Notes: generated from the letters alone by a model not told the origin. DNA of 64,000 bases from Chloroflexia bacterium (GCA_041082245.1 JBDOIE010000110.1:1276-65275); one strand, 5' to 3'. Numbered from the stretch's first letter, positions 4,022 through 41,400 are shown. Numbers and translations: made by a program.

Positions 4022-4040
4022 ACAGTATCCTCCTGTTGGC

Positions 4041-4070: not shown

Positions 4071-4134
4071 AAAGCAATCGGACAAATTCTTCTTGCTCTC
4101 TCACCCCCTTTCCGCGAAGGTGGTCAAGAGAACG

Positions 4135-4290
4135 GACGGAGGTGGGCGACCTGGCTTGGGTGGGATAGGGATCCCCACCCTCACAGTTGCGGGACAGCAC
4201 CGGACTTGCACCGGTTTCCCCCTGGTTAGCCCTAGCATCCGGGCATCGGGCGCCTCCGCCGGCCGGGTTGACAATGTACCGCATTACCAC
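4135..4290 (-). ncRNA. cobalamin (B12) riboswitch aptamer
   Basis: The minus strand reads ...AACCAGGGGGAAACCGGTGCAAGTCCGGTGCTGTCCCGCAACTGTGAGGGTGGGG... This is the conserved GGGAA-N-GGTGnAAnTCC ... CCCGC(C/A)ACTGTGA core and B12 box of the cobalamin riboswitch class. Confidence 0.8.
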
Positions 4291-8508: not shown

Positions 8509-8864
8509 TGCCACGGGAAAAGGTCCTGTGGGTGCGTGAACCCTACCTCGAACAGATCCTCGCGGGGCGCAAGACCGTCGAGGTGCGCGTGGCCTACACA
8601 AACATCGCACGGCTGGAGCCCGGGGACATCCTGCGCCTGAACGATCGCCACCCCGTGCGCATTCGCCGGATCGCCCGGTATCGCTCCTTCGAGGAGCTCC
8701 TGGCCCAGGAAGAGCCCAGGGCCATCGCCCCGGACCTGGATCGGGCGGCACTGCTGGCTGCCCTGCGGGAACTCTACCCTCCGGAGAAGGAAGCGCTCGG
8801 AGTCGTTGCCCTCGAGGTGGAACTCCTGGAAGGAGCGCCATGCCGGTCGAGCGGTTCGGCTTAG
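8508..8864 (+). CDS. ASCH-domain protein
   Basis: MPREKVLWVREPYLEQILAGRKTVEVRVAYTNIARLEPGDILRLNDRHPVRIRRIARYRSFEEL... The ATG overlaps the proS TGA (ATGA). It lies in the frame of spurious ORF 7215..8864. Confidence 0.6.
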
Positions 8865-14639: not shown

Positions 14640-14713
14640 CGCGCACCTCCTCCGTCGACGGCGTAGCCGCATTGTACACCATCGGTGAAGACCGCGCAAA
14701 CTGAGCTCCGCGC

Positions 14714-14741
14714 TTGACTTCCGCTGCCGTCTCGTTACAAT
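14714..14741 (+). promoter_or_regulatory. candidate promoter TTGACT - 16 nt - TACAAT
   Basis: gcgcTTGACTtccgctgccgtctcgtTACAATagg in the polA upstream intergenic region, reading away from polA. Confidence 0.35.
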
Positions 14742-14773
14742 AGGGCCGTCAAGGATGGTGCAAGGCCATAAAG

Positions 14774-15010
14774 GTGCTGGTCAAACCTCGTATGGCCGCA
14801 TGGTTGGCGCAGCGGCGCAAGGCCGAGGAACGGCTACGCCTGGAACGGCTGGAGAGGATGGAACACCTCACGCCTGAGGAGTCTTTGCGGGCCTATCCTG
14901 CGCTGTGGGAATTTCGCCCCGCAACTCGCGTGGACATCCCCCCTTTGATCCGCGCAATGCGGAAGGCCGCCGACGCGTTGAACCGGAGGAAGACCCGTGG
15001 GTCTCCTTGA
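14774..15010 (+). CDS. hypothetical small protein (78 aa)
   Basis: GTG-start ORF MLVKPRMAAWLAQRRKAEERLRLERLERMEHLTPEESLRAYPALWEFRP... downstream of the candidate promoter. No recognisable family. Overlaps a downstream truncated nucleotidyltransferase-like frame. Confidence 0.3.
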   Translation: MLVKPRMAAWLAQRRKAEERLRLERLERMEHLTPEESLRAYPALWEFRPATRVDIPPLIRAMRKAADALNRRKTRGSP

Positions 15011-15215
15011 CGCGGCCCGGCAGGTAGCGGAGCTTCTCGCGCAGCGACGCATCCCACAAGCCTGGATCGGCGGCCTTGCGCTCCGGCATTGGGGCGAACC
15101 TCGCCTGAGCTACGAAATGGCTTTCCGGCTTCAGGGAAGTGACAGAGGAGCACGATCCTCTGGCGCTATTTGAGCACTGTCTGCACGAGGCGTCTGGGTC
15201 AGCGCAAGAACAGCC

Positions 15216-16889
15216 GTGGAACCATCTTTCGAGCAAGTGCGCCGTGCAATCCGCGAGTGCCTGCGCAAGGGAGAAAAGGAACAGGCACTGGTCACGGTAG
15301 AAGCTTTCCTTAAGAAGGCACCGGATAGCGTCCCTGCCCTGATCTGGTATGCCGGCCTTACGCCCGACCTGGAAAAGGGCATCCAGGCACTGGAGCGCGT
15401 TCTCGAACTCGACCCGCAGAATCCGCGTGCCCGCGCTGGGCTTCAGGACCTGCGCGCGCGGCTCGCCAGCATACGTCCCACGGAGGAACCCCCTGCACAG
15501 GAGGACGGCGAGCTGGCGGCCTCGACCGGTATCCCGGCCCCAGCGGCTGGCGCGGAGTCGCTCATTGGCGCTACGGTGCACGGGGACGAGGTGATCGCAT
15601 TCGCCGAAAGCCTGATCTGGCCGTTCCGGGGGCTAAACCGCCCCATCGGAGAGCTGCTGAAGGAAGGCAATATCCGAGACAAGGACCTCGCCTGGGCCGG
15701 CGGGAACGCGCGCGATCCCCGCCTGCGGTGGGCAGCGGGCATCCTTCTGCGCCGCAGCGAGCTCCGGGGGAAAGAATTCCCGGTGGATGCCGCCCGGACG
15801 GCGGTGTGGCCGTTCCGGGGGTTGAACCGGCCTATCGGCGAGCTTGTAGCCGCAGGCACGGTGCGACTGGAGGATCTGGCATACGCCCTGCTCCAGGGAA
15901 GGGAGGCTTCCCTGCGTTGCGCCGCCGCAGTGGTGGGGTATGCAATCGTGCGCGGCAGCGCGCAGTGCATGCCCGCCAAGGAAGCGAAGAGCGAGCGCGT
16001 GCCGGAGCGGCCTGTGGAAGCCGCGCCCGGCAAACCGCTGGCACAGGGCGCGACGCACGTGTCAGCGGCGGGGCGTGCCCGTCCCCAGGAAGAAGCCGCT
16101 GTGGAAGCACCGCCTCCGGGCCGCCTGGAGGTCGTTCTGGAGAGCGGGTACCTCGAAAAGCAACAGCGAGCCCACCGGGAGAAGCGCAAAAGGATCATCA
16201 GATGGGTGCTGATGCTTCTCGCCCCGCTTGCATTCGTGACGATGTTGAGCGGTATCCTGCTCCCCACGCGTAAGGTGCCTCTACACATCGCTGTCGCTCT
16301 GCTGTTTGCCCTGTGGGTGATCGAAGGCTTGCTCGATCGGACCATCGTGCCGATCGTGAACCGACTCAGGAGGGAAGAAGAGGCCTACGCGCGCGGCAGG
16401 GCGGCCGAGGATCGGTTGGCGGCGCTGTTGAGCAAGCATTTGGACTCCGCCTGGACGCTCTTTCGCAACGTCGTCCTTCCCGGCCGGCCGGACGATATCG
16501 ACGCGGTCCTGCTCGGACCACGCGGCCTGTACGCGCTGGAGGTGAAGGCCTACAGCGGGTTGTACCGCAATGTGGGAGAGCGGTGGGAATACCGCCACGG
16601 GCGATTCTGGCGAGAGGCCGACGAAAACCCGACCGCGCAGGCCCTTGGGAACGCCGCGCGGCTCCGGGATTACCTGCGCGAGATCGTGGGAACGGAGGTC
16701 TGGGTGGAACCGCGCGTCGTCTGGGGCGGAAACCACCGGGTGGTCTTCGAGCAGTCGCGGGTGCGCATCTGGGAACTGGGACGACCCGATTACTGGCTCC
16801 GCGAGCTTTGCAACGGGAAGCCTCTGCCGAAAGAGACGGTCGAACGCATCCGGGTCGCCCTGAGGGCGGTCTGCTCCACGTTGCGGTGA
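15216..16889 (+). CDS. TPR-like / tandem-repeat / two-TM / C-terminal NERD (nuclease-related) domain protein
   Basis: N-terminal TPR-like helices. Two roughly 60-aa repeats, each containing WPFRGLNRPIGEL. TM helices IIRWVLMLLAPLAFVTMLSGILL and HIAVALLFALWVIEGLL. C-terminal ...GRPDDIDAVLLGPRGLYALEVKAYSG... is the NERD signature. GTG start. Confidence 0.7.
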   Translation: MEPSFEQVRRAIRECLRKGEKEQALVTVEAFLKKAPDSVPALIWYAGLTPDLEKGIQALERVLELDPQNPRARAGLQDLRARLASIRPTEEPPAQEDGELAASTGIPAPAAGAESLIGATVHGDEVIAFAESLIWPFRGLNRPIGELLKEGNIRDKDLAWAGGNARDPRLRWAAGILLRRSELRGKEFPVDAARTAVWPFRGLNRPIGELVAAGTVRLEDLAYALLQGREASLRCAAAVVGYAIVRGSAQCMPAKEAKSERVPERPVEAAPGKPLAQGATHVSAAGRARPQEEAAVEAPPPGRLEVVLESGYLEKQQRAHREKRKRIIRWVLMLLAPLAFVTMLSGILLPTRKVPLHIAVALLFALWVIEGLLDRTIVPIVNRLRREEEAYARGRAAEDRLAALLSKHLDSAWTLFRNVVLPGRPDDIDAVLLGPRGLYALEVKAYSGLYRNVGERWEYRHGRFWREADENPTAQALGNAARLRDYLREIVGTEVWVEPRVVWGGNHRVVFEQSRVRIWELGRPDYWLRELCNGKPLPKETVERIRVALRAVCSTLR

Positions 16890-16948
16890 ACCGTCGATGC
16901 TCGAGGTTGTGCTATAATTGCTATGCCAGCATGTCTAGCCCGTGAGAG

Positions 16949-16989
16949 GGGCACCCAGCTGGGTTTCCGGCTGGGTGCCCGTTCTTTTA
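16949..16989 (+). terminator. intrinsic terminator (14-bp stem GGGCACCCAGCUGG/CCGGCUGGGUGCCC then GUUCUUUUAG)
   Basis: A perfect long GC stem with a 4-nt loop and a U-tract lies 60 nt after the NERD gene stop and 20 nt before the SBP gene RBS. Confidence 0.55.
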
Positions 16990-17008
16990 GCAGAAGGAGG
17001 AAACTGAA

Positions 17009-17968
17009 ATGGCCAGGACATTGAGCGTCCTTGCGCTCTGTATGCTGCTCGTCGCCGCCTGCGGGCGGACTCAGCCGGCCGGGCCGGTACAGATCGGCGT
17101 GCGTACCGCCAACGACCATGTCCCGTTCTACATCGCCGACAAAGAAGCGCTCTACCGGCAGGTCGGCCTCGAAGCGACCGTGCGCCTCATCCCCAGCAAC
17201 ACCGAGATCGTGGAGGCGCTCCAGCGCGGCGACCTCCAGATCGGCGCGATCCCCGTGACCACCGCCATCACTGCGATCGACCACGGCGCGGACCTCCGGA
17301 TCGTCGCGATGACCGGGCGCGGCAGCGACGGTCTCCTGGTGCGCCGCGACAGCGGCATTACAAGCTGGGAAGACCTGAGAGGGAAACGCATCGCGACGAT
17401 CCGCGCCTCTATCCTGGACGTGCTCTTGCTTCAGGCGCTCGAAACACACGGCTTGGACCCCAGCCGCGACGTGACGCTTGTGTACTTCCAGAAGCTCGGG
17501 GATATGATCAGCGCCCTCAAGACGGGCCAGGTCGATGCTACCTCGAACACCGAGCCGTTTATGACCGACGCCGTCCGCCAGGGATGGGGCCATATCCTTG
17601 GGTACTACACCGAGCAGTGGCCGGACCATCCTTGCTGCGTGGTCGTAGCGCGCGGCGACCTGCTGAGGCAGCACCCGGAGACGGTCGAACGGGTGCTCAG
17701 GGCGCACATCCAGGCCGTGGAACGGGCGTGTACGGACCGCGCCTACGCCGCCCGGGTGATCGTGGAATACCTGCAGGCGTTCAATCCGGAGCTGGTAGAA
17801 GCCTCCCTGGCCCCGGAGAAGATGCGGGTGGACTATCACCTCACCCAGGAAGAGATCGCCCGTATGGCGGAACTGATGTACCGACAGGGGTTGTTGGAAC
17901 ATCCTCCGGAAGAGACCCAGTTCACCGACCTGGGTCCGCTCCAGCGCGTGATGGGGGAACAGAAATGA
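17009..17968 (+). CDS. ABC transporter substrate-binding lipoprotein, NMT1/THI5-like (SsuA/TauA/ThiY family)
   Basis: Lipoprotein signal MARTLSVLALCMLLVAACG. NMT1-like periplasmic binding fold. AAGGAGG RBS. Confidence 0.8.
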   Translation: MARTLSVLALCMLLVAACGRTQPAGPVQIGVRTANDHVPFYIADKEALYRQVGLEATVRLIPSNTEIVEALQRGDLQIGAIPVTTAITAIDHGADLRIVAMTGRGSDGLLVRRDSGITSWEDLRGKRIATIRASILDVLLLQALETHGLDPSRDVTLVYFQKLGDMISALKTGQVDATSNTEPFMTDAVRQGWGHILGYYTEQWPDHPCCVVVARGDLLRQHPETVERVLRAHIQAVERACTDRAYAARVIVEYLQAFNPELVEASLAPEKMRVDYHLTQEEIARMAELMYRQGLLEHPPEETQFTDLGPLQRVMGEQK

Positions 17969-18744
17969 AGCGTCAGGCGGAATGGCGTGGGGGCCTGCTC
18001 CTCGCGGTCCTGCTGATCGCTTGGGAGGTGATCCCCCGGCTGGGGTGGGTCGACCCGCTCCTCCTGCCGCCCTTTTCGCGCGTGGGCACCCGCCTGCTCA
18101 CGCTGGCCGTCTCGGGCGAGCTCGTGCAGCACGCCGCGGCGAGCCTGGGGCGGGTGCTCACGGGCTACGGCCTGGCGCTGGCTGTGGCCCTGCCCCTGGG
18201 GTTCCTCCTGGGGTTGAGCGAGCCGGCCGAGCAGTTTGCCCGCCTGACGGTACAGCTCCTGCGGCCGCTTTCTCCCCCGGCATGGATCCCGCTCGCCATC
18301 CTCTGGTTCGGCATCGGCAACGCACCGGCGATCTTTATCATCTTCGTGGGGACATTCCTCACCCTGCTTACCGGGACGATCGCCGCCGTACGGGGCGTAG
18401 ATCGGCGCCTGGTGCAGGCGGCACGCACCCTGGGATGCAGCCGTCGGAGTGCCATCCTGCGCGTGGTGCTGCCCGCGGCGCTGCCGGAGCTGCTCACACT
18501 GGTGCGCCTCGGGCTCGGGCTGGCTTGGATGTGCGTGATGGCTGCGGAAATGGTCGCGGTTTCGCGAGGGCTGGGTTTCCTGATGCTGGAAGCCCGCAAT
18601 CTCTTCCGCACCGACACCGTCCTGGCCGGCATGCTCACCGTGGGGTGCCTGGGACTGCTCCTGGACGGGATATTGCGCCTTGTGCAGGCGCGCCTCCTGC
18701 GGTGGCAGGTCGGGAGGAGGGCCTATGAAATGCCTGGAGATTGA
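17965..18744 (+). CDS. ABC transporter permease (SsuC/TauC-like, BPD_transp_1)
   Basis: MKRQAEWRGGLLLAVLLIAWEVIP... Six TMs. ATG overlaps the SBP stop (ATGA). The ORF's upstream 127 aa are trimmed. Confidence 0.8.
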   Translation: MKRQAEWRGGLLLAVLLIAWEVIPRLGWVDPLLLPPFSRVGTRLLTLAVSGELVQHAAASLGRVLTGYGLALAVALPLGFLLGLSEPAEQFARLTVQLLRPLSPPAWIPLAILWFGIGNAPAIFIIFVGTFLTLLTGTIAAVRGVDRRLVQAARTLGCSRRSAILRVVLPAALPELLTLVRLGLGLAWMCVMAAEMVAVSRGLGFLMLEARNLFRTDTVLAGMLTVGCLGLLLDGILRLVQARLLRWQVGRRAYEMPGD

Positions 18745-19465
18745 GGCCCTCTCCAAGGTCTACCCCGGCCCGGACGGGCCCATCGAGGCGATCCGGCGCG
18801 TGGACCTCGCGGTGCGCGAAGGCGACTTTGTGGCGATCGTGGGGCCCAGCGGGTGCGGCAAGAGCACGCTCCTGCAGATCGTTGCCGGGCTCGAGCGGCC
18901 GACGAGCGGTCGGGTTCTGTTCCGGGGCCAGCCGGTTCGCGGGAGCAGCCACGAGCGCACGCTGATCTTCCAGGAGAGTGCCCTGTTCCCATGGCTCACG
19001 GCCCAGGGGAACATCGAGTTCGGCCTGCGCAACCTGGGCCTGGCGGCGGCGGAGCGTCGGGCCCGTGCCCGGGAGGCGCTGCGGTGGCTCGGGCTGGAGG
19101 CGTTCGCCGGCCTGTACCCGCACCAGCTGTCCGGGGGGATGCAGCAGCGCGTCGCGCTCGCCCGGGCTCTGGCGGTCGATCCCGCCCTGCTGCTGATGGA
19201 CGAGCCGTTCGCCGCCCTGGATGCCCTGACCCGCCGGCGCCTGCAGGAGGAGGTGCGCCGCATCCAGGAGGAACGCCGGCAGACGGTGCTGCTGGTCACC
19301 CACAGCGTCCGGGAGGCGCTCTCCCTGGCCGACCAGGTCGTCGTGCTGAGCGGCCGGCCGGCCGTGGTTCGCACGACCATGCCCATCCCGCACCCGCTCT
19401 CTCCCAGCGCGCTTGTGGAGTGGGAGGAAGCCATCCATCGCTACCTGATGGATGAGTTGTGCTAG
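18725..19465 (+). CDS. ABC transporter ATP-binding protein
   Basis: MKCLEIEALSKVY...GPSGCGKSTLLQ...LSGGMQQRVALARAL...LLMDEPFAALD. Walker A/B and the ABC signature. Confidence 0.85.
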   Translation: MKCLEIEALSKVYPGPDGPIEAIRRVDLAVREGDFVAIVGPSGCGKSTLLQIVAGLERPTSGRVLFRGQPVRGSSHERTLIFQESALFPWLTAQGNIEFGLRNLGLAAAERRARAREALRWLGLEAFAGLYPHQLSGGMQQRVALARALAVDPALLLMDEPFAALDALTRRRLQEEVRRIQEERRQTVLLVTHSVREALSLADQVVVLSGRPAVVRTTMPIPHPLSPSALVEWEEAIHRYLMDELC

Positions 19466-19500
19466 AATGGCCGGTGACGGGCTTACGAAAGGAGGTCGGC

Positions 19501-20262
19501 ATGCGCCTCGCAGGTAAGGTAGCCCTGATCACGGGGGGCACGTCGGGCATCGGCCGGGCCACGGCGCTCCTGTTCGCGCGAGAAGGTGCGCGGGTAGCGA
19601 TCGTCGGCCGGAACGAGGAACGCGGCCGGCAGGTCGTCGAAGAGATCCGCGCAAACGGAGGAGAAGCGCGCTTTGTGCCCGGTGATGTCCGGGTGGCCGA
19701 CGATTGCCGGCGCGCGGTGGAGGAAACGGTGCGCGCCTTCGGCCGGCTGGACATCCTCTTCAACAACGCCGGGGTTTTCGTCCCGAACACCGTGGTGGAG
19801 TGCAGCGAGGAGGAGTGGGATCTCCAGCTGGACGTCAACCTGAAGGGCGCTTTCCTGATGTCCAAGTACGCCCTTCCGGTGATGATTGCCCAGGGTAGCG
19901 GGGTGATCATCCACAACGCCTCCGGCTGGGGCCTGGTGGGAGGCGATCGCGCGGCCGCGTACTGTGCCGCAAAAGGGGGGCTTGTGCTCCTCACGAAGGC
20001 CATGGCGATCGACCACGGGCCCCAGGGGATCCGCGTGAACTGCGTCTGTCCCGGGGACACAGACACCCCGATGCTGCTCGAGGACGCCCGCATGCGGGGG
20101 ATGTCGTGGGATGCATACCTCGCCGCAGCATCCAACCGGCCATTGCGACGGATCGGCCGACCGGAGGAGGTGGCGCAGGCCGTGCTGTTCCTCGCCTCCG
20201 ATGACGCGTCCTACATCACAGGCGCCGTGCTCGCCGTCGACGGCGGAGGTACGGCCGATTGA
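19501..20262 (+). CDS. SDR-family short-chain dehydrogenase/reductase
   Basis: MRLAGKVALITGGTSGIGRA...NNAGV...YCAAKGG... TGxxxGxG motif and the YxxxK catalytic motif. AAAGGAGG RBS. Confidence 0.85.
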   Translation: MRLAGKVALITGGTSGIGRATALLFAREGARVAIVGRNEERGRQVVEEIRANGGEARFVPGDVRVADDCRRAVEETVRAFGRLDILFNNAGVFVPNTVVECSEEEWDLQLDVNLKGAFLMSKYALPVMIAQGSGVIIHNASGWGLVGGDRAAAYCAAKGGLVLLTKAMAIDHGPQGIRVNCVCPGDTDTPMLLEDARMRGMSWDAYLAAASNRPLRRIGRPEEVAQAVLFLASDDASYITGAVLAVDGGGTAD

Positions 20263-20284
20263 CAGCCGGAATCAGGAGGTCGCC

Positions 20285-20716
20285 GTGTCCAGGCCAGAAC
20301 AGGCGGTAGCGCTCTTCGAGGCGGGCGCAAACTGCGCCCAGTCCGTCCTTTCCGTCTTTGCACCGACATACGGAATCGAACCGGGGCTTGCCATGCGGAT
20401 CGCCGCCGCATTCGGGGGCGGAATGGCGAGGACCGGGGAGGTATGTGGGGCCATCAGCGGCGGTCTGATGGTGATCGGGCTGCACTGCGGACCGGACCGG
20501 CCTGCGGAAGAGGAAAGGGACCGCTGCTACGAACTGACACGCACCTTTCTCCAGCGATTCCGGGAAAAAGAGGGCGCCCTGCTCTGCCGGGAGCTTCTGG
20601 GGTGCGAGATCCTGACCCCCGAAGGGAGGAAGCGCGCCCACGAGATCGGGCTGATCCAGAAGCGCTGCCCGGGTTTTGTCCGGCGCGCGGTGGAGCTGCT
20701 GGAGGAGTTACTGTAG
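20285..20716 (+). CDS. C_GCAxxG_C_C family redox-active protein
   Basis: VSRPEQAVALFEAGANCAQSVLSVFAPTYGIE...GEVCGAISGGLMVIGLHCG...C-terminal CPGF. GTG after CAGGAGG, 20 nt after the SDR stop. Confidence 0.6.
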   Translation: MSRPEQAVALFEAGANCAQSVLSVFAPTYGIEPGLAMRIAAAFGGGMARTGEVCGAISGGLMVIGLHCGPDRPAEEERDRCYELTRTFLQRFREKEGALLCRELLGCEILTPEGRKRAHEIGLIQKRCPGFVRRAVELLEELL

Positions 20717-20724
20717 CCGGGAAA

Positions 20725-20756
20725 AGCCTCCGGGCGCGCGGCCCGGAGGCTTTATC
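20725..20756. terminator. bidirectional terminator hairpin between convergent genes (12-bp stem AAGCCTCCGGGC/GCCCGGAGGCTT)
   Basis: aaagcctccgggcgcgcggcccggaggcttt is flanked by T/A runs on both strands, between the 20716 (+) and 20777 (-) gene ends. Confidence 0.45.
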
Positions 20757-20776: not shown

Positions 20777-21412
20777 CTACGAGCCGATCAACGCCCGCGC
20801 GACCTCGACCGCGGTCGCGGCGTCCGGCGCGTAGGCGTCGGCACCGATCTCACGGGCATAGGCATCCGTCAAAGGCGCGCCGCCGACCATCACTTTAACC
20901 CTGTCCCTCAGGCCTGCGCTCCGGAGTGCCTCGATCGTATCGCGCATCCGCACCATCGTCGTTGTGAGCAGCGCGCTCATCCCCACGATCTGCGGCCGAT
21001 GCTCTTCCACCGCGGCCACAAAGCGTTCCGGCGCGACGTCGGTCCCCAGGTCGATTACCTCAAAGCCGGCGCCCTCGAGCATCATGCGGACAAGGTTCTT
21101 GCCGATATCGTGGAGATCTCCCTGCACGGTCCCGATCACGTACGTGCCGATGCGCGGCACCCCGGTCTCGGCAAGCAAGGGCCGCAACACGGCCATCCCG
21201 GCATGCATGGCCCGCGCGGCAACCAGCACCTCAGGGACAAATAGCTCCCCGGCCTTAAAGTCCCGCCCGACACGGTCCATCCCTGCGATAAGGCCGGAAA
21301 GCACCTCCGCCGGCGAGTGGCCGCGTCCAAGGGCTTCCTGCACCAGCGCGGCAACCTCGGTGTGCTTTCCCTCGTACAGCTTTTCGGCGATTCGTTCCAG
21401 GATCTCCGACAT
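20777..21412 (-). CDS. corrinoid (B12-binding) protein of methyltransferase systems (MtbC/MttC/MtgC-like)
   Basis: MSEILERIAEKLYEG... N-terminal B12-binding_2 helical domain, then ...GTVQGDLHDIGKNLVRMMLEGAGFEVIDLG (DxHxxG cobalamin-binding motif) and the Rossmann B12-binding domain. Confidence 0.85.
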   Translation of the reverse strand: MSEILERIAEKLYEGKHTEVAALVQEALGRGHSPAEVLSGLIAGMDRVGRDFKAGELFVPEVLVAARAMHAGMAVLRPLLAETGVPRIGTYVIGTVQGDLHDIGKNLVRMMLEGAGFEVIDLGTDVAPERFVAAVEEHRPQIVGMSALLTTTMVRMRDTIEALRSAGLRDRVKVMVGGAPLTDAYAREIGADAYAPDAATAVEVARALIGS

Positions 21413-21445
21413 CGAGATGACCTCCTCACTGTAGGGAACGTCGTG

Positions 21446-22666
21446 TCAGGATCGGATCACTTCCCCCTCGCGGACGACGAGCCGCACCCGGTCGAGCGCC
21501 CCGATGTCCGCAAGCGGATCCCCTTCCACGGCGATCAGGTCGGCCAGCTTGCCGGGCTGTAGCGAACCGATCTCGTCCCAGCCCATAGCCTGGGCCGGCC
21601 AGAGCGTTGCCGCCTGGATCGCCTGCATCGGGGAGGCACCGTATGCCACAAGCCAGCGTACCTCGTCGGCCATCGCGGCAAAGCGCACACCGCCCAGCCA
21701 GGAGTCCGTGCCGGCCGCGATCTTCAACCCCGCCTGGAGAGCGCAGGCCATCGAGGCATGCTTCTTCTCCCGGTATTCCAGCGTTTCCTCGTATTCCTTC
21801 TGCGCGCGCCGGGCAACCTCCGGATCGGGATCGAAGCGCCGTCGGTCGCACCACTTCAGGTACTCCTCGCCGATGTTCAGCGTGGGCACCCAGGTGATCC
21901 CCCGGGCAGCTGCCAGTTCGATCTCCTCGGGCGAGGGAGTGCCATGTTCGAAGGTATCCACACCGGCCTCGATCGCCATGCGCTGGGAGGGCGGTTTGGA
22001 GGTATGGCAGGTCACCTTCTTCCCGAGCCGGTGCGCCTCGTCGACCGCGGCGTTCAGCTCTTCCTGTGTCAGGTCTGCCCCGTTGTTCGCCAGTTTGATG
22101 AAATCGGCCCCTGCCCGCACCTCCTCGCGCACCGCGCGCCGGAAACCGTAGGGGCCGTCCGCCTCGTTCGCCAGGCCAGGAAGGTAATGCACATGCCCAC
22201 CGGTCGGGACGATCAGCCGGCCGGAAACGTACACCTTGGGGCCCGGGATGCGCCCCCGTTCGATCGCCCGCTTGACGTCGAACATGATCTGGTCCACCGA
22301 GCCGGTATCCCGCACGGTGGTGATCCCGGCCCAGAGCGCCTCGCGCAGCCGCTGAGCAGCGACCAGGGCGATCATGACCGGGGAGTAGACGAGGGCGTTT
22401 TCGGGCTCGTAAGTGTAAGTGGCAGAGTCGGGTTCTTCCCAATAGTAGGTCGGGTGGACGTGCATGTCGATCAACCCGGGAAGGAGGCACCCGTCCGGGT
22501 ACTCGAGCACCCGGGCTTCGGGCGGCGGAGTGGGCGCACCGGCCGCCGGACCGGCGTAGACGATCCGCCTGCCGGAAACGGCGACTGCGCCGGGCGATAT
22601 GGCAGGGCCACCCAGCCCGTCGATCAGCCAGCGCGCGCGCACGAGCAGCGTGATCGGTTCGCTCAT
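21446..22666 (-). CDS. amidohydrolase-family metal-dependent hydrolase
   Basis: ...LLPGLIDMHVHPTY... (HxH), ...KVTCHTSKP..., ...AAGTDSWLG... The amidohydrolase_1 metal ligands. ATG overlaps the upstream MttB-family stop (ATGA). Confidence 0.8.
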   Translation of the reverse strand: MSEPITLLVRARWLIDGLGGPAISPGAVAVSGRRIVYAGPAAGAPTPPPEARVLEYPDGCLLPGLIDMHVHPTYYWEEPDSATYTYEPENALVYSPVMIALVAAQRLREALWAGITTVRDTGSVDQIMFDVKRAIERGRIPGPKVYVSGRLIVPTGGHVHYLPGLANEADGPYGFRRAVREEVRAGADFIKLANNGADLTQEELNAAVDEAHRLGKKVTCHTSKPPSQRMAIEAGVDTFEHGTPSPEEIELAAARGITWVPTLNIGEEYLKWCDRRRFDPDPEVARRAQKEYEETLEYREKKHASMACALQAGLKIAAGTDSWLGGVRFAAMADEVRWLVAYGASPMQAIQAATLWPAQAMGWDEIGSLQPGKLADLIAVEGDPLADIGALDRVRLVVREGEVIRS

Positions 22667-24165
22667 AGGGCACCTCCCGCGCGGGCATCCGCCTCCGCGA
22701 CGATCGCCCGCAGCGTTTCCTGCACCTGGGGCGGGAGAGGCTTCGGTTCGTGGGAAGCCAGAATCGAGCGCGCGAACTCACGGGCGTTCCGCACGGCATC
22801 CGGCCGGCCGGCATCCACCCAGGCAGCATAGGCCCGCCGATCGAACAGGCGCGGGTACCACACCTCGCGGTAGTGGCGCGCCGTGTGCGGCGACTCAAGG
22901 AAATTCCCGCCCGGGCCCACCTCGTGGATCACGTCCAGTGCGAGCGTCTCGGGGGTGATCTCGATCCCGCGGAGCAGGCGGCGCACCAGCCCGATCACCT
23001 CGTTCCCCAGGACGATCATCTCGTAGGAGCAGGTCAGGCCCGATTCGATATAGCCGACATCGTGCACGAGGTTCGCGCCGGAGAGGGCGGTCCAGAGGAT
23101 CCAGAGCGCGCTCTCGACCCCGGCTTGCAGGTCGGCCGCTTTCGAGTCCGAGCAGCCGGCAAACCCCCACACCGGCAGGTGGTAGTAGTAATGGGCCAGT
23201 TCTGCCATCGCCATGCAGTGGAGCATGAACTCGGGACCCGCGTAGACGCCCACCATCGTGCGCATGTCGAGCGGGCCGCTCCCCGAGCCCCACACGAACG
23301 GGGTTCCCGGCCGACGCAGCTGCGCGATGACCAGGCCGCTCAGCACCTCCGCGTTGGCCATCGCCAGGCTACCGGCCGAGGTGACCGGCGCCGAAGCCCC
23401 TTCCAGCGGCCCCGGCGCGTACACGAGCGGCAGGCCGTGATCCGCCATACGGAGCAGCTTCCGCAGCACAACCTCGGAGTGACGCAAAGGGGAGGAGGGT
23501 TCCAGGTAGGCCAGGAGGAACGGCTTGAGAGCGAGCTCCCGGGGCCCGCCGGCGACTGCCTCGGCCATGGCGATGATGTCCGCAAGGCCCCGATCGTCCC
23601 ATGCGGTGAACACGATCGGCTTGACCGTGTTTTCGAGCATCGCCAGGAACGAGTGACGGTCCGCGGTTTCGGCCGGCACGTCTGACGGGAGCGCCATCGA
23701 CATGACAAAGTCGAGGTGGGGGAGGGCATCCGTCAGGCGGGCCGTCTGCGCGACGTCCGAAAGGCGCGAAGGCCGGCGCTCTCCCGTCTCCAGGTCGATC
23801 GTGTTCGGCAAGTCCGAGCCGGTGCCGAAGTAGCAGCGATGCCCTTCGAGAAAGGCGCGTGGCTCGCCGGTGCGGTCGCACAGCACCACGCGCGAGGGGG
23901 CGCGCTGCAACGCCTCTTCCACCACCGCAGCAGGGAACCGCACGAGCGTCTCGTCGCTCACGATGCAGCCGGCTTCCTGGAGCAGGGTGCGCGCTTCGGC
24001 CTCGTACACGCGTACGCCGGTACGACGGAGGATTTCGAGCGAGGCCAAGTGGATCTCCTCCAGCTGGGCATCCGAGAGCATCCGAAAGCCGGAGGGGCGA
24101 GGGCTCACCGGTTCGACGGAATCCGAGAGCCCCGGTTTCCTGGGCGAGAGCGGTACGTTCGACAT
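22663..24165 (-). CDS. MttB-superfamily (non-pyrrolysine) quaternary-amine:corrinoid methyltransferase (MtgB/MtpB/MtcB-like)
   Basis: MSNVPLSPRKPGLSDS...RMLSDAQLEEIHLASLEILRRTGVRVY... TIM-barrel MttB family. The ORF is uninterrupted, so there is no in-frame UAG. ATG (M52 of the ORF) after GAGGAGG. Confidence 0.85.
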   Translation of the reverse strand: MSNVPLSPRKPGLSDSVEPVSPRPSGFRMLSDAQLEEIHLASLEILRRTGVRVYEAEARTLLQEAGCIVSDETLVRFPAAVVEEALQRAPSRVVLCDRTGEPRAFLEGHRCYFGTGSDLPNTIDLETGERRPSRLSDVAQTARLTDALPHLDFVMSMALPSDVPAETADRHSFLAMLENTVKPIVFTAWDDRGLADIIAMAEAVAGGPRELALKPFLLAYLEPSSPLRHSEVVLRKLLRMADHGLPLVYAPGPLEGASAPVTSAGSLAMANAEVLSGLVIAQLRRPGTPFVWGSGSGPLDMRTMVGVYAGPEFMLHCMAMAELAHYYYHLPVWGFAGCSDSKAADLQAGVESALWILWTALSGANLVHDVGYIESGLTCSYEMIVLGNEVIGLVRRLLRGIEITPETLALDVIHEVGPGGNFLESPHTARHYREVWYPRLFDRRAYAAWVDAGRPDAVRNAREFARSILASHEPKPLPPQVQETLRAIVAEADARAGGAL

Positions 24166-24182: not shown

Positions 24183-25151
24183 CTATTGTAGCCGCACACG
24201 CGGGTCGATCACCGCGTAGAGCAAGTCCACGACGAAATTCATCACCACGATGGCCACCGCGGCGAAGGTGATCGTGCCGACGATCACCGGCACGTCCAGG
24301 TTGCGGATGGCGCGCCACATCTCGAAGCCGATCCCGGGCCAGGAAAAGACCGCCTCGATGAGCACCAGGCCGCCCAGGTAGTAGGCAAGGTCCATACCGA
24401 TCATGCTGACGATCGGCTGGATCGCGTTGCGCAGGACGTGGCGAAAGAGCACCGCCGTTTCGGAAAGGCCCTTGGCACGGGCCGTGCGCACGAAATCGGC
24501 CTGCAGGATGTCCAGCATGCTGGAGCGGAGCATCCGCGCGTACCAGGCGGCACCGGCCAACCCCAGGGTGATCGCCGGCAGGATGAGATGTTTGAAACTC
24601 CCGTGGCCCCCCAGCGGCAGGATCGGCCAGCGGTAGCCAAAGAGGTAGAGCAACACCAGCCCGAGCCAGAACGAGGGCGCGGAGACGCCAAAGAGCGCCA
24701 GCAGCATCGCCGTGCGGTCCCAGATGCTGCGCTGCTTGTAGGCAGAAACGATACCTACCGGGATGCCGAGTACCACCTCCACGATCACACCGGAAACGGC
24801 CAGTTGCGCGGTGGCGGGGATCCGCTGGGCGAGGATCTCGGCCACGGGGCGCTGCTGGTAGTAGGAGGTGCCCAGATCTCCGTGCAGCAGGTGGTTCAGG
24901 TAACGCAGGAATTGCGTATCGACCGCGCGCGCCAGGTCTCCCGCGAAGAGCGCCCCGAGGTCCAGGAAAAGGGGACGGTTCAGGCCGAGGTGTTCACGGA
25001 TGAGCTCCAGCGTTTCAGGACGGGCCCGAGGGCCGGCAACCGCACGCGCCGGGTCGGCCGGGATCATATAGGCGATGACAAAGGTCACCACCAGGATAGC
25101 GCCGACCACGAGCAGCATACCGAGGAAGCGGCGGATGATGTAACGGACCAT
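24183..25151 (-). CDS. ABC transporter permease, DppB/OppB-like
   Basis: MVRYIIRRFLGMLLVVGAILVVTFVIAYMIPADPAR... The canonical DppB N-terminus and the BPD_transp_1 core. Confidence 0.85.
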   Translation of the reverse strand: MVRYIIRRFLGMLLVVGAILVVTFVIAYMIPADPARAVAGPRARPETLELIREHLGLNRPLFLDLGALFAGDLARAVDTQFLRYLNHLLHGDLGTSYYQQRPVAEILAQRIPATAQLAVSGVIVEVVLGIPVGIVSAYKQRSIWDRTAMLLALFGVSAPSFWLGLVLLYLFGYRWPILPLGGHGSFKHLILPAITLGLAGAAWYARMLRSSMLDILQADFVRTARAKGLSETAVLFRHVLRNAIQPIVSMIGMDLAYYLGGLVLIEAVFSWPGIGFEMWRAIRNLDVPVIVGTITFAAVAIVVMNFVVDLLYAVIDPRVRLQ

Positions 25152-25160: not shown

Positions 25161-26084
25161 CTACCGGCGCTGCTGCGGGTCAAGGGCGTCGCGTAGCCCG
25201 TCGCCCATCAGGTTGAAGCCCAGTACGGTCAACATGAGCATGAACCCGGGGCTCAGGATCAGCCATGGGGCGCTGCGATAGTAGGTCTGGCCTTCGCTGA
25301 TCATTCCGCCCCACGAGGCGGTAGGCAGGCGGATGCCCAGCCCGAGGTAGGAGAGTTCCGCCTCCATGAGCACCGTGCTCGCCACGCCCAGCGTGGCATA
25401 GACCACGGCGACGGACACCAGGTGCGGCAGGATATGGCGGGTCAGGATGCGCCACCGGCTGGCGCCGATCACCTGGGCGGCGAGCACGAACTCCATCTCG
25501 CGCAGCGACAGGACTCGCCCGTGCACGATCCGGGCGAGGTAGACCCAGTACACCAGGGCGATGATGACGATCAGGATGTCGATCCCGGGCCGCAGGACCG
25601 CGCCGAGAGCGATGGCCAGCAGCAGGGTGGGAAAGGCCATCATGACGTCCGTCAGGCGCATGAGCACCGTCTCCACCCATCCGCCGAGGAAAGCGGCCGT
25701 AGCCCCGATCAGCAGAGCGATGATCACAGCGAGCCCATTGCCGACAATCCCCACGAAGAGCGAAACGCGCGCTCCCCAGATGAGCCGGCTGAGCACATCC
25801 CGCCCCAGGTGGTCCGTACCCAGCCAGAAGGTCCGGCTGGGAGGCAGCGGCGCTCCGACCGCTGTGAGGCCATGGGGGTGCTGCCAGTTGGGGTCGTAAG
25901 GGGCGATCCACGGCGCAAAGATGGCGAGGACGATGAGGATGACACAGATCACCGCCCCCACGATTGCTGCGCGGTCCCTCTTCAGTCGGCGCCATGCGTC
26001 CGACCAGAGGGTGTTGACGCGCTCAACCTCGCGCTCTTTCCCCCATCGAGGCCTGGCTTTCTCCGAGACGTCCGTGCTGTCCAT
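25161..26084 (-). CDS. ABC transporter permease, DppC/OppC-like
   Basis: ...LWSDAWRRLKRDRAAIVGAVICVILIVLAIFAPWIAPYDP... The DppC-type N-terminus and six TMs. Confidence 0.85.
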   Translation of the reverse strand: MDSTDVSEKARPRWGKEREVERVNTLWSDAWRRLKRDRAAIVGAVICVILIVLAIFAPWIAPYDPNWQHPHGLTAVGAPLPPSRTFWLGTDHLGRDVLSRLIWGARVSLFVGIVGNGLAVIIALLIGATAAFLGGWVETVLMRLTDVMMAFPTLLLAIALGAVLRPGIDILIVIIALVYWVYLARIVHGRVLSLREMEFVLAAQVIGASRWRILTRHILPHLVSVAVVYATLGVASTVLMEAELSYLGLGIRLPTASWGGMISEGQTYYRSAPWLILSPGFMLMLTVLGFNLMGDGLRDALDPQQRR

Positions 26085-26275: not shown

Positions 26276-27910
26276 CTACGGCTGGATCCACATCCGCTCG
26301 AAGAAGGGTCCGTACTCCGAGCGCGAGTAGAAGCCCTGGATGCGCGGGTTGTGCAGGTAGAAGGAGATACCGGTGAACAGTGGCACGTGTACTGCATCCT
26401 CCATCAGGATGTGCTCGATCTGCCGGTACAGCTCCAGCCGTTTCGCGCGGTCCTGTTCGGCCAGGGCCTGGCGTCCCAGCTCGTCCACCTTCGGGTTGGA
26501 GTAAAAGTCATAGTTGCTGCCCGCACCGCTCATATAGAGGTTGTTGATCAGGTCGGCGGGATCCGGCTGGATCATGTACCAGGAGTTCAGGAACAGTTCG
26601 GTCTCCCCGGCGACCATCATATCGTAGACCACCGTGTCGGAAGCCTGCTTGATCTCGATCTGGATACCGATCTGGCCCAGGTCCTGCTGGATGGCCTGCG
26701 CCACGGTCGATGCGAGCGGGTCCTCGCCGATCAGGAGCTCCAGGGTTAATCCTGTGGAAACGCCGGCCTCGGCCAGTTTCTGTTTGGCTGCCTCCGGGTC
26801 GTACGGATAGGGCTTGTAGTTGGGATCGTATCCCGGAGCGGTAGAGGGATAGATAGCATAGAGCGGTTCTCCCTTGCCGCCTGTCAGGCGGGCGATCTTT
26901 TCCCGGTCTATCGCCATGTTGAGCGCCTGGCGCAGGGCGAGGTTGTCAAGCGGCGGCTTGGTGTTGTTCACCCCAAGCCACCAGGTGTACATCGACGGCT
27001 CCCGGAAGAGCCACGACTCGTACTTCGGGTCGTTCACGATCCGGGCAAAGTCGGCGGCCGGGATCATATCCCCGAAGAGCACGTCCAGCTCTCCTTTTTC
27101 CAGGCGCAGAAGCGCGGTCGAGGGATCGACCCCGAAGTACATGATGGTCTCATCGATGTACGGCTGGCCCTCGTGGAAAAAGTCGGGGTTGCGCACAAAG
27201 ACGGCTTTCTCTCCAGGGACAAACTCTTTCAGTATGAAGGGGCCGGTCCCTACCGGATGCATCCCGAACTCTTTGCCCCATTTCTCCACCTCTTCCCGCG
27301 GCACTACCCAGTTGTTGGGCAGGGCAAGCACATTCAGGAAGGTCATATCCGGGGCGACCAGCTCTACGCGCAAGGTGTACTTGTCCAGTACCTTCACCCC
27401 GGCGAGCTCCTTGGTCTGCCCGTCGATGATCTCCTGGGCACCTTTGATGCTCAGGAGGTAGTAGTTGGCCCACGATTCCCACTCCGGGTCCAGGCACCGC
27501 TCCCAGGAGTACTTGAAGTCGGCCGCTTCGACCTCGCGGCCGTTGTGGAACTTGATGCCGGGCTTCAGGGTAAAGGTATAGACTGTGCCGTCAGCGCTGA
27601 TCTGGGGGAAATCGGCCGCCATATCGGGAACGGCACGATCCCCTTCGTAGATCATCAGGCCGCGGTACAGGTTCATCAGGCTCTGCCAGGCGGGAAGGTT
27701 GTAGCCCAGGATGGCGTCCATCGAGTTCGGGTCTTCTGTGAAGGCCAGCGTGACCGTGCCTCCCCGCACCGGGCCGGCCGGAGTGGGCGTTTCTGCCACG
27801 GCCGTCGGGGGCGGCGATGTGGGGGAGGGACGGCTGGGCCCACAGGCGGCCAGGGTAACCAGGAGCCATACGGCCACGACGAGCGCACCGATGCGCACCT
27901 TCTTTACCAT
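26276..27910 (-). CDS. ABC transporter substrate-binding lipoprotein, family 5 (peptide/nickel/opine type)
   Basis: MVKKVRIGALVVAVWLLVTLAACG. A lipobox, then the family-5 SBP fold. ATG (M7 of the ORF) after GAGGAGG. Confidence 0.85.
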   Translation of the reverse strand: MVKKVRIGALVVAVWLLVTLAACGPSRPSPTSPPPTAVAETPTPAGPVRGGTVTLAFTEDPNSMDAILGYNLPAWQSLMNLYRGLMIYEGDRAVPDMAADFPQISADGTVYTFTLKPGIKFHNGREVEAADFKYSWERCLDPEWESWANYYLLSIKGAQEIIDGQTKELAGVKVLDKYTLRVELVAPDMTFLNVLALPNNWVVPREEVEKWGKEFGMHPVGTGPFILKEFVPGEKAVFVRNPDFFHEGQPYIDETIMYFGVDPSTALLRLEKGELDVLFGDMIPAADFARIVNDPKYESWLFREPSMYTWWLGVNNTKPPLDNLALRQALNMAIDREKIARLTGGKGEPLYAIYPSTAPGYDPNYKPYPYDPEAAKQKLAEAGVSTGLTLELLIGEDPLASTVAQAIQQDLGQIGIQIEIKQASDTVVYDMMVAGETELFLNSWYMIQPDPADLINNLYMSGAGSNYDFYSNPKVDELGRQALAEQDRAKRLELYRQIEHILMEDAVHVPLFTGISFYLHNPRIQGFYSRSEYGPFFERMWIQP

Positions 27911-27976
27911 CGCAGACCTCCTCGGCACTCCTTGCCGGGGACCTTGCCCCGAATCCGGTGCAACTGCTCTCTTGCG

Positions 27977-29251
27977 TTAAGGCCTCCTTTCCTGCGGACC
28001 TCCCGGCTGCCTTCCCTGTGCTCCTCCGGGGCAGGTGTGCGCGGTCGCGATCAGCGTGTCGATCAGGCGGGGATTCGTATCCAGGGGGAACGGGCTTCCG
28101 GTGCTGACGACGAACCCACGTGCCCGCGCGCCGATCGCCGCCTGTCTCCGGACCTCGGCAGCCATCTCCTCCAGCGTGGCGTGCAGACCGAAGCGGATGG
28201 CGTCGATGTTGCCAAAGACTGTCACGCGATCGCCCACCCGTTCGACCACATCCTCCAAGTCGATGCGGAACGACTTCTTGCTCTCCTCCACGGCGACAGC
28301 GTCGATTTCCAATTGGGCGATACGCTCCAGCCGCGGGATCACATCGCCGCACACGTAATGGATGGAGAGCAATCCCAGGCGGCGCATATGCTGGAAATAG
28401 GGCCGGTTGTAGGCAAACACGAATTCGTCGTAACTGCGGGGCGAAATCACATCCGCCCCGGTGAACACTTCTTCCACGTAAACCCCGTGGATACCGGCTT
28501 TGGCCCACGCTGCCATGACCTCCATGGTCTGGCGCAGCTTGCGCTCCAGGAGGTAATGAAGCAGGTCAGGGTTGTCGTGCTGGATCAGCATCAACCCCTG
28601 GAACCCCAGCAGGTCGTACGCATCGGAGAACGGGGTGTCCAGCACGGTGGAAAGAAAGTAGCGGTCTCCGTATTCGCTGACGATGAGGCGCGGAAGGTCC
28701 CAGTCACCCCGGGCCAAAAGTTGCTCGCAATCCAGGATCGGAAGCCGTGCGTCCACGTCCTCCGGACCGCACAGTTGGTCGGAGAGATCCCAAAGGTCGC
28801 TCTGCGAGGCGTTGGGCGGGGCCAGGACCGCATCGCCGGTGGGGATGGGAACCTGATCCATCGGTACCTGCATCCCGGTTTCGCGGTCGCGGTAGCAGAG
28901 CATACCGTCACCAAGCTGCACGATCTCCGTGCGCTCGGCCCAGGCGCGGCTTGCTCCCCGGTGGATCTCCATCCAATCCGGCCGCACCTTGAAGATGCCG
29001 TAGGACTGGTAGATCGCCTCGGCCCGCAGGCGGGTGTCTTCTTCGTGGTCGATCGGGTAGACGGATCGGCCGCGCATGCGGCGCCGGTACAGTTCGATGT
29101 AGTAGGCACGCTCGAAATCCGCAAGGAACAGGCTCAGGTAAGCGGGCGCTGCCGGAAGGACGTCGACCTGATCGCCGCGCAGCGCGCGACGCATCCGCTC
29201 AACGGGGGCAAGGTTGTCCGTCTCCCCAGGCTCTATATCCGCCATGGGCAT
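27977..29251 (-). CDS. uroporphyrinogen decarboxylase (URO-D) family protein, MtaA/MtbA-like methylcorrinoid methyltransferase candidate
   Basis: MPMADIEPGETDNLAPVERMRRALRGDQVDVLPAAPAYLS... URO-D TIM-barrel family. ATG (M66 of the ORF) after AAGGAGGAG. The ORF's first 65 aa are treated as spurious. Confidence 0.7.
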   Translation of the reverse strand: MPMADIEPGETDNLAPVERMRRALRGDQVDVLPAAPAYLSLFLADFERAYYIELYRRRMRGRSVYPIDHEEDTRLRAEAIYQSYGIFKVRPDWMEIHRGASRAWAERTEIVQLGDGMLCYRDRETGMQVPMDQVPIPTGDAVLAPPNASQSDLWDLSDQLCGPEDVDARLPILDCEQLLARGDWDLPRLIVSEYGDRYFLSTVLDTPFSDAYDLLGFQGLMLIQHDNPDLLHYLLERKLRQTMEVMAAWAKAGIHGVYVEEVFTGADVISPRSYDEFVFAYNRPYFQHMRRLGLLSIHYVCGDVIPRLERIAQLEIDAVAVEESKKSFRIDLEDVVERVGDRVTVFGNIDAIRFGLHATLEEMAAEVRRQAAIGARARGFVVSTGSPFPLDTNPRLIDTLIATAHTCPGGAQGRQPGGPQERRP

Positions 29252-29463
29252 CGTGGGCTCCTCCTTCTTACGAAGCCGCCGATGACTTGGGAAAGCGCTG
29301 CCCGAGAAGGCAACGCGGACGAGAGGTCTGGAAAGTCGCGTTCCGATAAAAGTATAGCACTCGGGGAAACCCCTGTCAATGGTTGCGGGACGCCTGAGCT
29401 TGTAGTACAATACGGGCGGTCTGCCCCTGAGGGCATATACAATCATCCTTTAGGGAGGCATCG

Positions 29464-40228: not shown

Positions 40229-40239
40229 CTCGGTTCCTC

Positions 40240-41367: not shown

Positions 41368-41400
41368 CTTTGGACTCCTTGTACGGTAGCCGGATCGTGT

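Follow-up and report, generated by a model that had tools for sequence, protein, structure and literature searches.

The window analysed here is a 64,000-nucleotide (nt) stretch of DNA from a Chloroflexia bacterium (GCA_041082245.1, JBDOIE010000110.1:1276-65275), with a GC content of about 66% and with its closest relatives among metagenome-assembled genomes (MAGs) of Chloroflexia and Anaerolineae; coordinates are counted from its first letter. Seven genes on its minus strand constitute one operon, which has a promoter-like site at one end (29351-29379) and a terminator hairpin at the other (20722-20750) and encodes, in the 5′ to 3′ direction, a URO-D-like protein, a substrate-binding protein (SBP) from family SBP_bac_5, permeases of the OppC/DppC and OppB/DppB types, a homolog of MttB methyltransferases, an amidohydrolase and a corrinoid protein. 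An earlier note, made from the sequence alone, had described the last three of these genes as an operon in which a methyltransferase is accompanied by an amidohydrolase. Pfam searches confirm all three genes on the minus strand at the coordinates below and their grouping stands, but they are the 3′ half of a larger unit, the features of which are as follows.

29351-29379, minus strand: promoter-like site TTGACA-17 nt-TATACT with an upstream TG (scan, 11 of 12 matches)
27977-29251, minus strand: URO-D/MtaA-like protein, 424 amino acids (aa) (Pfam URO-D, 94 bits)
26276-27928, minus strand: SBP_bac_5 lipoprotein of a Dpp/Opp-type ABC importer, 550 aa, with a LAAC lipobox (Pfam, 316 bits)
25161-26084, minus strand: ABC permease of the OppC/DppC type, 307 aa (Pfam OppC_N and BPD_transp_1)
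24183-25151, minus strand: ABC permease of the OppB/DppB type, 322 aa (Pfam BPD_transp_1_N and BPD_transp_1)
22663-24165, minus strand: non-pyrrolysine methyltransferase of the MttB superfamily, 500 aa (Pfam MTTB, 336.4 bits)
21446-22666, minus strand: binuclear metallo-amidohydrolase of the COG1228 type, 406 aa (Pfam Amidohydro_1, 136 bits)
20777-21412, minus strand: corrinoid (B12-binding) protein, 211 aa (Pfam B12-binding and B12-binding_2)
20722-20750, minus strand: intrinsic-terminator-like hairpin GCCTCCGGGC-cgcgc-GCCCGGAGGC followed by TTTT (read from the sequence)

The promoter-like site sits within a divergent intergenic region of 212 nt, on the other side of which is a gene for an ADP-forming acetyl-CoA synthetase (29464-31554, plus strand). 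The genes are closely spaced at five of their six junctions, with either an ATGA overlap or a gap of 9-48 nt, and the gap between the SBP gene and the first permease gene is 191 nt. Shine-Dalgarno sites can be read upstream of the URO-D-like, MttB and corrinoid genes. The mechanical open reading frame (ORF) of the URO-D-like gene reaches 29446, but its start was set at 29251 because of the Shine-Dalgarno site AAGGAGGAG, the lengths of its orthologs (390-410 aa) and the location of the promoter inside the longer ORF. The terminator-like hairpin lies 27 nt past the corrinoid stop codon and faces the end of a convergent C_GCAxxG_C_C gene; it was passed over by an automated terminator scan because its T run consists of only four T. 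Rfam identified no riboswitch ahead of the operon, its sole match in the window being a cobalamin riboswitch 16 kb away, and tblastn identified no second copy of the MttB, corrinoid, URO-D-like or other operon genes elsewhere in the window.

The match of the MttB homolog to Pfam MTTB (PF06253; E 2.4e-100, cut-off 25) covers residues 25-493 of 500. Its ATG is preceded by GAGGAGG, and its frame is open, without any internal stop or the in-frame UAG that the earlier note had reported to be missing; Cys338 aligns to the pyrrolysine of the Methanosarcina barkeri MttB. With neither UAG nor pyrrolysine, and with 440 bits against a cut-off of 525 for TIGR02369 (the model of trimethylamine methyltransferase MttB proper), the protein can be ruled out as MttB proper. 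Its solved relatives score nearly equally (228 bits for M. barkeri MttB, 7XCL; 218 bits for MtgB, 9YCE/2QNE), and tight clustering with MtgB, an outcome that the earlier note had held open, is contradicted both by these scores and by the substrate pocket. In the glycine betaine site of MtgB, Y97 and F356 make cation-pi contacts, and R312 and H348 make contacts with the carboxylate; R312 is conserved in MtcB, MtpB, MthB and MtyB, and the R312L variant of MtgB is inactive (PMC13080624). An alignment of 111 sequences places S117, W333, H368 and G376 of the window protein at positions Y97, R312, H348 and F356, respectively, with only H348 retained. When the pyrrolysine position is included, the resulting pattern S-W-C-H-G (S117/W333/C338/H368/G376) is found in 87 of 89 close relatives. 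The R312 position is occupied by Trp in 88 of the 89; the remaining one has Phe, as does a second MttB lineage (43-45% identity), the pocket of which reads S-F-(A/V)-H-G. Identity with MtgB is ruled out by the replacement of three of the four glycine-betaine-binding residues, and a function of the type of MtcB, MtpB, MtyB or MthB, the quaternary amine methyltransferases of Eubacterium limosum, was set aside because the Arg anchor conserved among those enzymes (PMC13080624) is replaced by Trp. The absence of the Arg anchor would fit a substrate that has no anionic group beside its quaternary nitrogen and is uncharged at that place, as in an amide. Every characterised member of the MttB superfamily demethylates an amine (PMC13080624, PMC12155760), and the proposed role of this homolog is that of a substrate:corrinoid methyltransferase (MT1).

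The ATG of the amidohydrolase gene overlaps the TGA of the MttB gene as ATGA, the coupling that had been noticed earlier, and its product has no signal-like hydrophobic stretch at the N-terminus. The ligand set of binuclear enzymes of this kind, as described for CaeD and Cc2672, consists of an HxH motif on strand 1, a carboxylated Lys on strand 4, His residues on strands 5 and 6, and an Asp on strand 8 (PMC5636949). The window protein has the complete set (H69, H71, K191, H221, H241 and D321), which is invariant among 25 orthologs and places it with the binuclear subtype of the COG1228 group. The nearest solved relatives are the Arg carboxypeptidase Cc2672, Xaa-Pro dipeptidases and ochratoxin amidases, the best at approximately 130-154 bits, and every solved relative whose substrate has been described splits the bond between an acyl or aminoacyl group and a C-terminal amino acid. 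The protein falls below the cut-off of NCBIfam NF051886, the model for Xaa-Pro dipeptidases of the Caulobacter type (240.6 bits versus 500). A paralogous COG1228 amidohydrolase, 37% identical to that of the window, is a closer match to Cc2672 (255 bits).

The gene for the corrinoid protein has its own GAGGAGG site and begins 33 nt past the amidohydrolase stop codon. Both of its Pfam domains score above their cut-offs, and D99-L-H-D-I-G104 (window 21101-21118) is the DxHxxG lower-ligand motif that the earlier note had read there, as expected of a cognate corrinoid protein. It falls just short of TIGR02370 (208 bits versus 215.3), and its nearest models are those of MtgC and pyl_corrinoid, all of which it matches below cut-off (for MtgC, 228 and 193 bits versus 370 and 310). 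Converging on the operon terminator are genes for a short-chain dehydrogenase/reductase (SDR) and a C_GCAxxG_C_C "putative redox-active" protein (19459-20716, plus strand), a pair that is kept beside the corrinoid gene in the closest relatives (L001 and L027), with the GCAxxG gene kept in L009 also; a role for this pair in keeping the corrinoid reduced is conceivable.

The Pfam URO-D match of the protein encoded by the first gene covers its C-terminal half only, and its score with the MtaA/CmuA model TIGR01463 is 63 bits versus a cut-off of 235. MtaA ranks first in a profile search with this protein (E 1e-8), and an AlphaFold2 model (pLDDT 89.5) matches the folds of UroD and MtaA equally (TM approximately 0.72-0.75); this confirms the URO-D fold as such, but the fold search did not separate a decarboxylase-like from a methyltransferase-like role. 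Its sole invariant Cys is C301 (within IHYVCGD); E322, E323 and H405 are also invariant, and in H298-Y-V-C301 the His is displaced by one residue compared to the His-x-Cys of MtaA and MtbA. On its score and the missing second zinc Cys, the protein was rejected as a canonical MtaA or MtbA. The family is small, with 445 clusters in 5.8 billion sequences, and its top hits, of at least 65% identity, are all from Chloroflexota. By analogy with MttB/MttC/MtbA, it may act as the methyl-corrinoid:acceptor methyltransferase (MT2), an assignment that is uncertain.

The best solved relative of the SBP is MeAmi_SBP (8UPI), which binds L-amino-acid amides, at 344 bits; all others, DppA and OppA included, score 169 bits or less. 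In MeAmi_SBP, as in DppA-type proteins, an Asp residue (Asp413) forms a salt bridge with the free amine of the ligand (8UPI; bioRxiv 10.1101/2024.02.22.581678). Compared to MeAmi_SBP, the window protein keeps Tyr32 and Trp410, has Leu for Trp34, Ile for Asp413 and Ser for Trp435, and lacks the Met408 insertion; these ligand residues exclude a true amino-acid-amide binder like 8UPI. The replacements hold in the window protein and in most of seven orthologs, single orthologs having Ile or Val in place of Leu, and the Asp413 position is Ile in the window and six of the seven, with Val in the seventh. A different type of SBP that serves some copies of the module (26-30% identity) also lacks the N-terminus-binding Asp, which is retained by an unrelated neighbouring Dpp SBP in L002 and L027. 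This pattern is suggestive of a ligand of which the N-terminus may be blocked or quaternary. There is no ABC ATPase gene within the operon; versions of the module with the other type of SBP carry either one fused or two separate oligo_HPY ATPases (L004, L041), and the ATPases of the window importer presumably come from elsewhere in the genome.

The adjacency of MttB and amidohydrolase genes recurs in dozens of independent Chloroflexota contigs, far beyond chance. Many homologs of the amidohydrolase (62-93% identity) came up in a database search. All of their taxon-named sources are Chloroflexota, and the sizes of their longest contigs coincide time and again with those for the MttB homologs. 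A scan of a collection with one genome per species returned 28 loci of at least 59% identity (orthologs, 59-94%), all of the taxon-named members being Chloroflexota MAGs, plus six distant matches (23-25%) in other phyla, none of which has an MttB neighbour. In 21 of 23 distinct amidohydrolase loci with enough flanking sequence, again in Chloroflexota, an MttB homolog is encoded on the same strand within 4 kb, nearly always directly upstream with a gap of 0-100 nt; the earlier note had allowed that the amidohydrolase might be conserved without MttB neighbours, which these loci do not bear out. Most of these loci are joined by an ortholog of the URO-D-like gene (58-86% identity), and many by Dpp/Opp genes. 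The minimal module is URO-D-like/MttB/amidohydrolase (L013/L040, L023, L024, L030); fuller versions (L039, L041) also have an AsnC-type regulator, a corrinoid protein and a Dpp/Opp importer, the last accompanied by ATPases or lacking them. In a neighbour-joining tree, in which the characterised members placed are MtgB and M. barkeri MttB with sequences reconstructed from PDB alignments, the MttB proteins linked to amidohydrolase and URO-D-like genes, among them the window protein, fall into one group that is mostly contiguous, and the same two partners accompany the separate MttB lineage of 43-45% identity.

From the methyltransferase side, 80 metagenomic loci with MttB relatives of 66-93% identity were fetched, of which 69 extend at least 400 nt downstream, and their contexts are diverse. 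URO-D-like, MttB and corrinoid genes occur together without a hydrolase (L044-L046) or URO-D-like and MttB genes with a DJ-1/PfpI gene (L087, L095); a sulfatase gene lies beside MttB in L058 and L060, an MFS transporter gene neighbours it in 11 loci, and glycosidases are also among the contexts. An X-Pro dipeptidyl peptidase (Peptidase_S15) is encoded in six MttB loci, in L010 directly after the amidohydrolase, and a dipeptidase (Peptidase_M19) is encoded after the amidohydrolase in L004/L016 and farther downstream in L017. The paralogous COG1228 amidohydrolase of 37% identity is encoded directly upstream of MttB in L114 and L120, and amidohydrolase paralogs are encoded on both sides of MttB in L055 and L022. 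In L011 (7527-9938, plus strand) and L019 (37-801, plus strand), the gene directly upstream of the amidohydrolase ortholog resembles dimethylglycine/sarcosine dehydrogenase, the fusion being DAO-FAO_M-GCV_T-GCV_T_C (803 aa), and no URO-D-like gene was detected in the available sequence of these two loci, which hints that the URO-D-like and dehydrogenase-like genes may be alternative ways to remove further methyl groups. Hydrolases and transporters of the peptide type, along with additional chemistry for N-demethylation, are what recurs in the surroundings of this MttB clade. Directly after the module in L039 (= L006), at 11985-18709 on the plus strand, four more MttB paralogs (31-33% identity) surround a Pterin_bind gene of the MtgA/MtqA type; this is a canonical quaternary-amine gene array beside a URO-D-linked module.

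The operon resembles the three-component corrinoid methyltransferase systems: its protein families are nearest to MttB/MttC/MtbA of methanogens, and the absence of pyrrolysine is nearest to the bacterial MtgB type. With the trimethylamine:coenzyme M system of Methanosarcina (7XCL), it shares an MttB-family MT1 (with MttB the slightly better score), a corrinoid protein and a partner of the URO-D family, as well as a pocket in which R312 of MtgB corresponds to an aromatic residue and F356 to Gly, but it differs in having Cys instead of pyrrolysine, no zinc Cys pair of the MtbA/MtaA kind, a bacterial host and no evident coenzyme M pathway. With MtgB/MtgC/MtgA, the glycine betaine:tetrahydrofolate methyltransferase system of Desulfitobacterium hafniense (2QNE/9YCE), it shares a non-pyrrolysine MT1, a TIM barrel matched over its full length, next to a DxHxxG corrinoid protein, but S, W and G stand in place of Y97, R312 and F356, a URO-D-like gene takes the place of the pterin-binding MtgA, and the amidohydrolase and the Dpp/Opp importer are added. 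An extra enzyme that modifies the substrate and is encoded in such a cluster has a single known precedent, in MthB/MthC/MthA/MthK, the phosphocholine system of Eubacterium limosum (PMC12155760), in which MthK is a kinase that adds an anionic group rather than an amide hydrolase, MthB keeps the Arg anchor that is lost here, and the MT2 is pterin-binding. Cc2672, Sgx9260b/c, ochratoxinase and CaeD/ColD (3MTW, 2QS8, 3FEQ, 4C5Y) share the fold and the binuclear ligands of the window amidohydrolase (84-154 bits over the full or most of the length), but their identity to it is modest and none of these known COG1228 enzymes is linked to corrinoid methyl transfer. Operons that encode MeAmi_SBP or other amidase-associated SBP_bac_5 proteins (8UPI; bioRxiv 10.1101/2024.02.22.581678) share the logic of an SBP_bac_5 importer with an amide hydrolase, but their hydrolase is an FmdA_AmdA amidase, no methyltransferase is present, and the window protein has kept neither Asp413, which reads the free alpha-amine, nor the elements that make the pocket narrow (Trp34, Trp435 and the Met408 insertion). 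As analogues, the mec/cdm halomethane systems were set aside, having URO-D-family MT1 enzymes and no amidohydrolase. Searches of a literature library located no description of an amidohydrolase, a peptidase or a Dpp/Opp importer coupled to an MttB homolog, including in Chloroflexi and Anaerolineae. An accessory step as such is not new, given MthK and MthB.

The interpretation favoured here, at a rough probability of 0.4, is that the operon functions in the uptake and breakdown of a small compound with an amide- or peptide-linked quaternary nitrogen of the trimethylammonium type, which would be demethylated and then hydrolysed. What the analysis shows is the gene content, the operon structure, the intact catalytic residues, how the pocket differs, and that amidohydrolase, MttB and URO-D-like genes are conserved as neighbours. 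Candidate substrates would be betainyl-amino acids or dipeptides that begin with a betaine residue. The lipoprotein SBP and the two Dpp/Opp-type permeases would import the conjugate with ATPases supplied from elsewhere in the genome; the MttB homolog would methylate the Co(I) corrinoid protein with one N-methyl group of the conjugate, which would still be intact and locally uncharged; the URO-D-like protein might take the methyl group from methyl-Co(III) and pass it to tetrahydrofolate or a thiol as the cellular acceptor; and the dipeptidase-like amidohydrolase would cut the amide bond of the partly demethylated product to yield ordinary amino or organic acids. The class of substrate, the order of demethylation and hydrolysis, the acceptor of the methyl group and the assignment of the URO-D-like protein as MT2 are inferred. 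Demethylation is placed before hydrolysis because hydrolysis of an alpha-betaine conjugate would expose a carboxylate next to the nitrogen, which all known enzymes contact through the Arg that is missing here, and because a quaternary N-terminus, by our own reasoning, probably keeps peptidases from acting before its demethylation. On the comparative evidence, the best-supported reading is a variant pathway, as the earlier note had proposed, into which an amide hydrolase is integrated. A narrower and rather unlikely form of it is that the URO-D-like/MttB/amidohydrolase trio defines a new class of MttB substrates, the peptide-linked quaternary amines, for example X-Pro dipeptides of the TMAP type that carry a trimethylated N-terminus and are left when N-alpha-methylated proteins are degraded; a corrinoid-dependent "unblocking" would be followed by a dedicated prolidase-like amidohydrolase, and the methyl group would be passed on by a URO-D-family methyltransferase with a variant zinc site, of a kind not described before.

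Several results weigh against the demethylation-then-hydrolysis pathway. The amidohydrolase gene directly follows MttB in just 21 of the 69 close relatives (approximately 30%), on which count the assumption that each of them carries one was rejected; the MttB clade therefore works without the amidohydrolase in most genomes, and a free, non-amide substrate for MttB is possible. Neither an activase of the RamA type nor a pterin-binding MT2 was found among the larger ORFs of the window scanned against Pfam, and the second zinc-site Cys of MtaA and MtbA has no conserved counterpart in 29 URO-D-like homologs, which makes the MT2 role uncertain. The arguments from the methyltransferase pocket and the SBP come from sequence alignment to two structures and not from a ligand-bound model, the second type of SBP was aligned at just 26-30% identity, and gene order is uninformative about the order of the reactions.

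The main rival reverses that order: the amidohydrolase would first free a quaternary amine from an amide or peptide conjugate that has been imported, for example a C-terminal residue of the trimethyl-lysine type from a dipeptide, and the MttB homolog would then demethylate it. The amidohydrolase is nearly always found with MttB, whereas MttB is often found alone or with a sulfatase, a Peptidase_S15, a DJ-1/PfpI protein or a second amidohydrolase, and such a variety of hydrolases fits the idea of interchangeable "feeders" for one common MttB substrate; hydrolysis first accounts for this asymmetric co-occurrence equally well as demethylation first. Moreover, the closest solved relative of the amidohydrolase, Cc2672, was deposited as an L-arginine carboxypeptidase, which releases a C-terminal basic residue, and a quaternary nitrogen in such a residue, far from the carboxylate, would also explain the missing Arg anchor. 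However, a freed alpha-betaine has its carboxylate by the nitrogen, where the characterised enzymes all use the R312 that is absent here, and SBPs that lack the Asp for a free N-terminus would be unexpected for an ordinary Xaa-Lys(Me3) dipeptide; hydrolysis before demethylation is possible but, on balance, unlikely. A looser arrangement of co-regulated genes that do not share one chemical pathway, in which the transporter and amidohydrolase serve ordinary di- or oligopeptides while the MttB homolog, corrinoid protein and URO-D-like protein serve an unrelated free amine without an acidic group (choline or tetramethylammonium), would account for the many close MttB relatives that lack the amidohydrolase and for contexts that include MFS transporters and a sulfatase (a possible link to choline sulfate), and Trp at the R312 position would suit any cationic substrate without an acidic group. 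A general dipeptidase is not expected, though, beside MttB in 21 of 23 loci at 59-94% identity and with two MttB lineages; the collection with one genome per species yielded no member of the amidohydrolase orthogroup away from this context, the canonical Asp that binds an N-terminus is missing from the SBPs, and the ATGA overlap couples the MttB and amidohydrolase genes, all of which makes two unrelated functions improbable.

A glycine betaine system of the ordinary MtgB/MtgC type, with the amidohydrolase as an incidental insertion, would agree with MtgC being the best NCBIfam match of the corrinoid protein and with the high rank of MtgB among the solved structures related to the MttB homolog, but the MtgC scores are below cut-off, three of the four MtgB ligand residues are replaced, including the R312 of which the Leu variant is inactive, the pyrrolysine-containing MttB scores equally, the operon has no pterin-binding MtgA, and the synteny with the amidohydrolase is conserved; the pocket residues largely refute this reading, which is hardly credible. 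Biosynthetic or non-amine methyl transfer (O-, S- or halomethyl) by the MttB homolog and the URO-D-like protein, with the amidohydrolase tailoring the product, is very improbable as well. URO-D-family proteins do serve as MT1 enzymes for methoxylated aromatics and chloromethane (PMC13222342), and the one encoded here is atypical and belongs to a small family, but an importer within the operon is typical of catabolism, no biosynthetic genes are nearby, and the characterised members of the MttB superfamily all demethylate amines (PMC13080624, PMC12155760).

The window has several other features of note. The cobalamin riboswitch (Rfam RF00174, 59 bits; 4124-4272, minus strand) is located upstream of two minus-strand ORFs at 2942-4042 and 2377-2997, the products of which are a prenyltransferase/alpha-alpha-toroid-like protein and an ATP:corrinoid adenosyltransferase (CobA/BtuR), respectively; together they look like a unit for B12 salvage or handling in the same window as the corrinoid operon. 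A redox block resembling Hdr/Mvh is encoded on the minus strand at 39548-47030 and 51217-55129, comprising a 4Fe-4S protein, FlpD/MvhD, an HdrA-like flavo-iron-sulfur protein of 1490 aa, FAD/Fer4 proteins of 570 and 544 aa, and an HdrB-like CCG-domain protein, and is split by a gene for a triple-GAF histidine kinase of 1386 aa (47032-51192); the block points to an anaerobic, electron-bifurcating lifestyle. Selenocysteine synthase SelA is encoded at 33379-34761 on the plus strand (465 bits), implying the use of selenoproteins in this Chloroflexota genome. Two genes of the FemAB family, resembling transferases of the peptidoglycan interpeptide bridge, are found 53 kb apart (8840-9868 and 62860-63921, both on the plus strand).

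MttB homologs are among the commonest "methylamine" annotations in environmental MAGs and are routinely read as signs of trimethylamine or glycine betaine use; in one floodplain study, they were present in 17% of MAGs, notably in Anaerolineae (PMC11264602). The clade to which the window protein belongs is a large one in Chloroflexota that lacks the residues for binding trimethylamine or glycine betaine and is embedded in peptide-catabolic gene sets, and the trio of URO-D-like protein, MttB homolog and amidohydrolase is a compact, cloneable set of proteins for direct testing. If the proposed pathway is true, it would give the MttB superfamily an amide- or peptide-linked class of substrates and its second kind of accessory enzyme, the first being the kinase MthK, and it would provide fermentative Chloroflexota with a route by which to harvest methyl groups from modified peptides.

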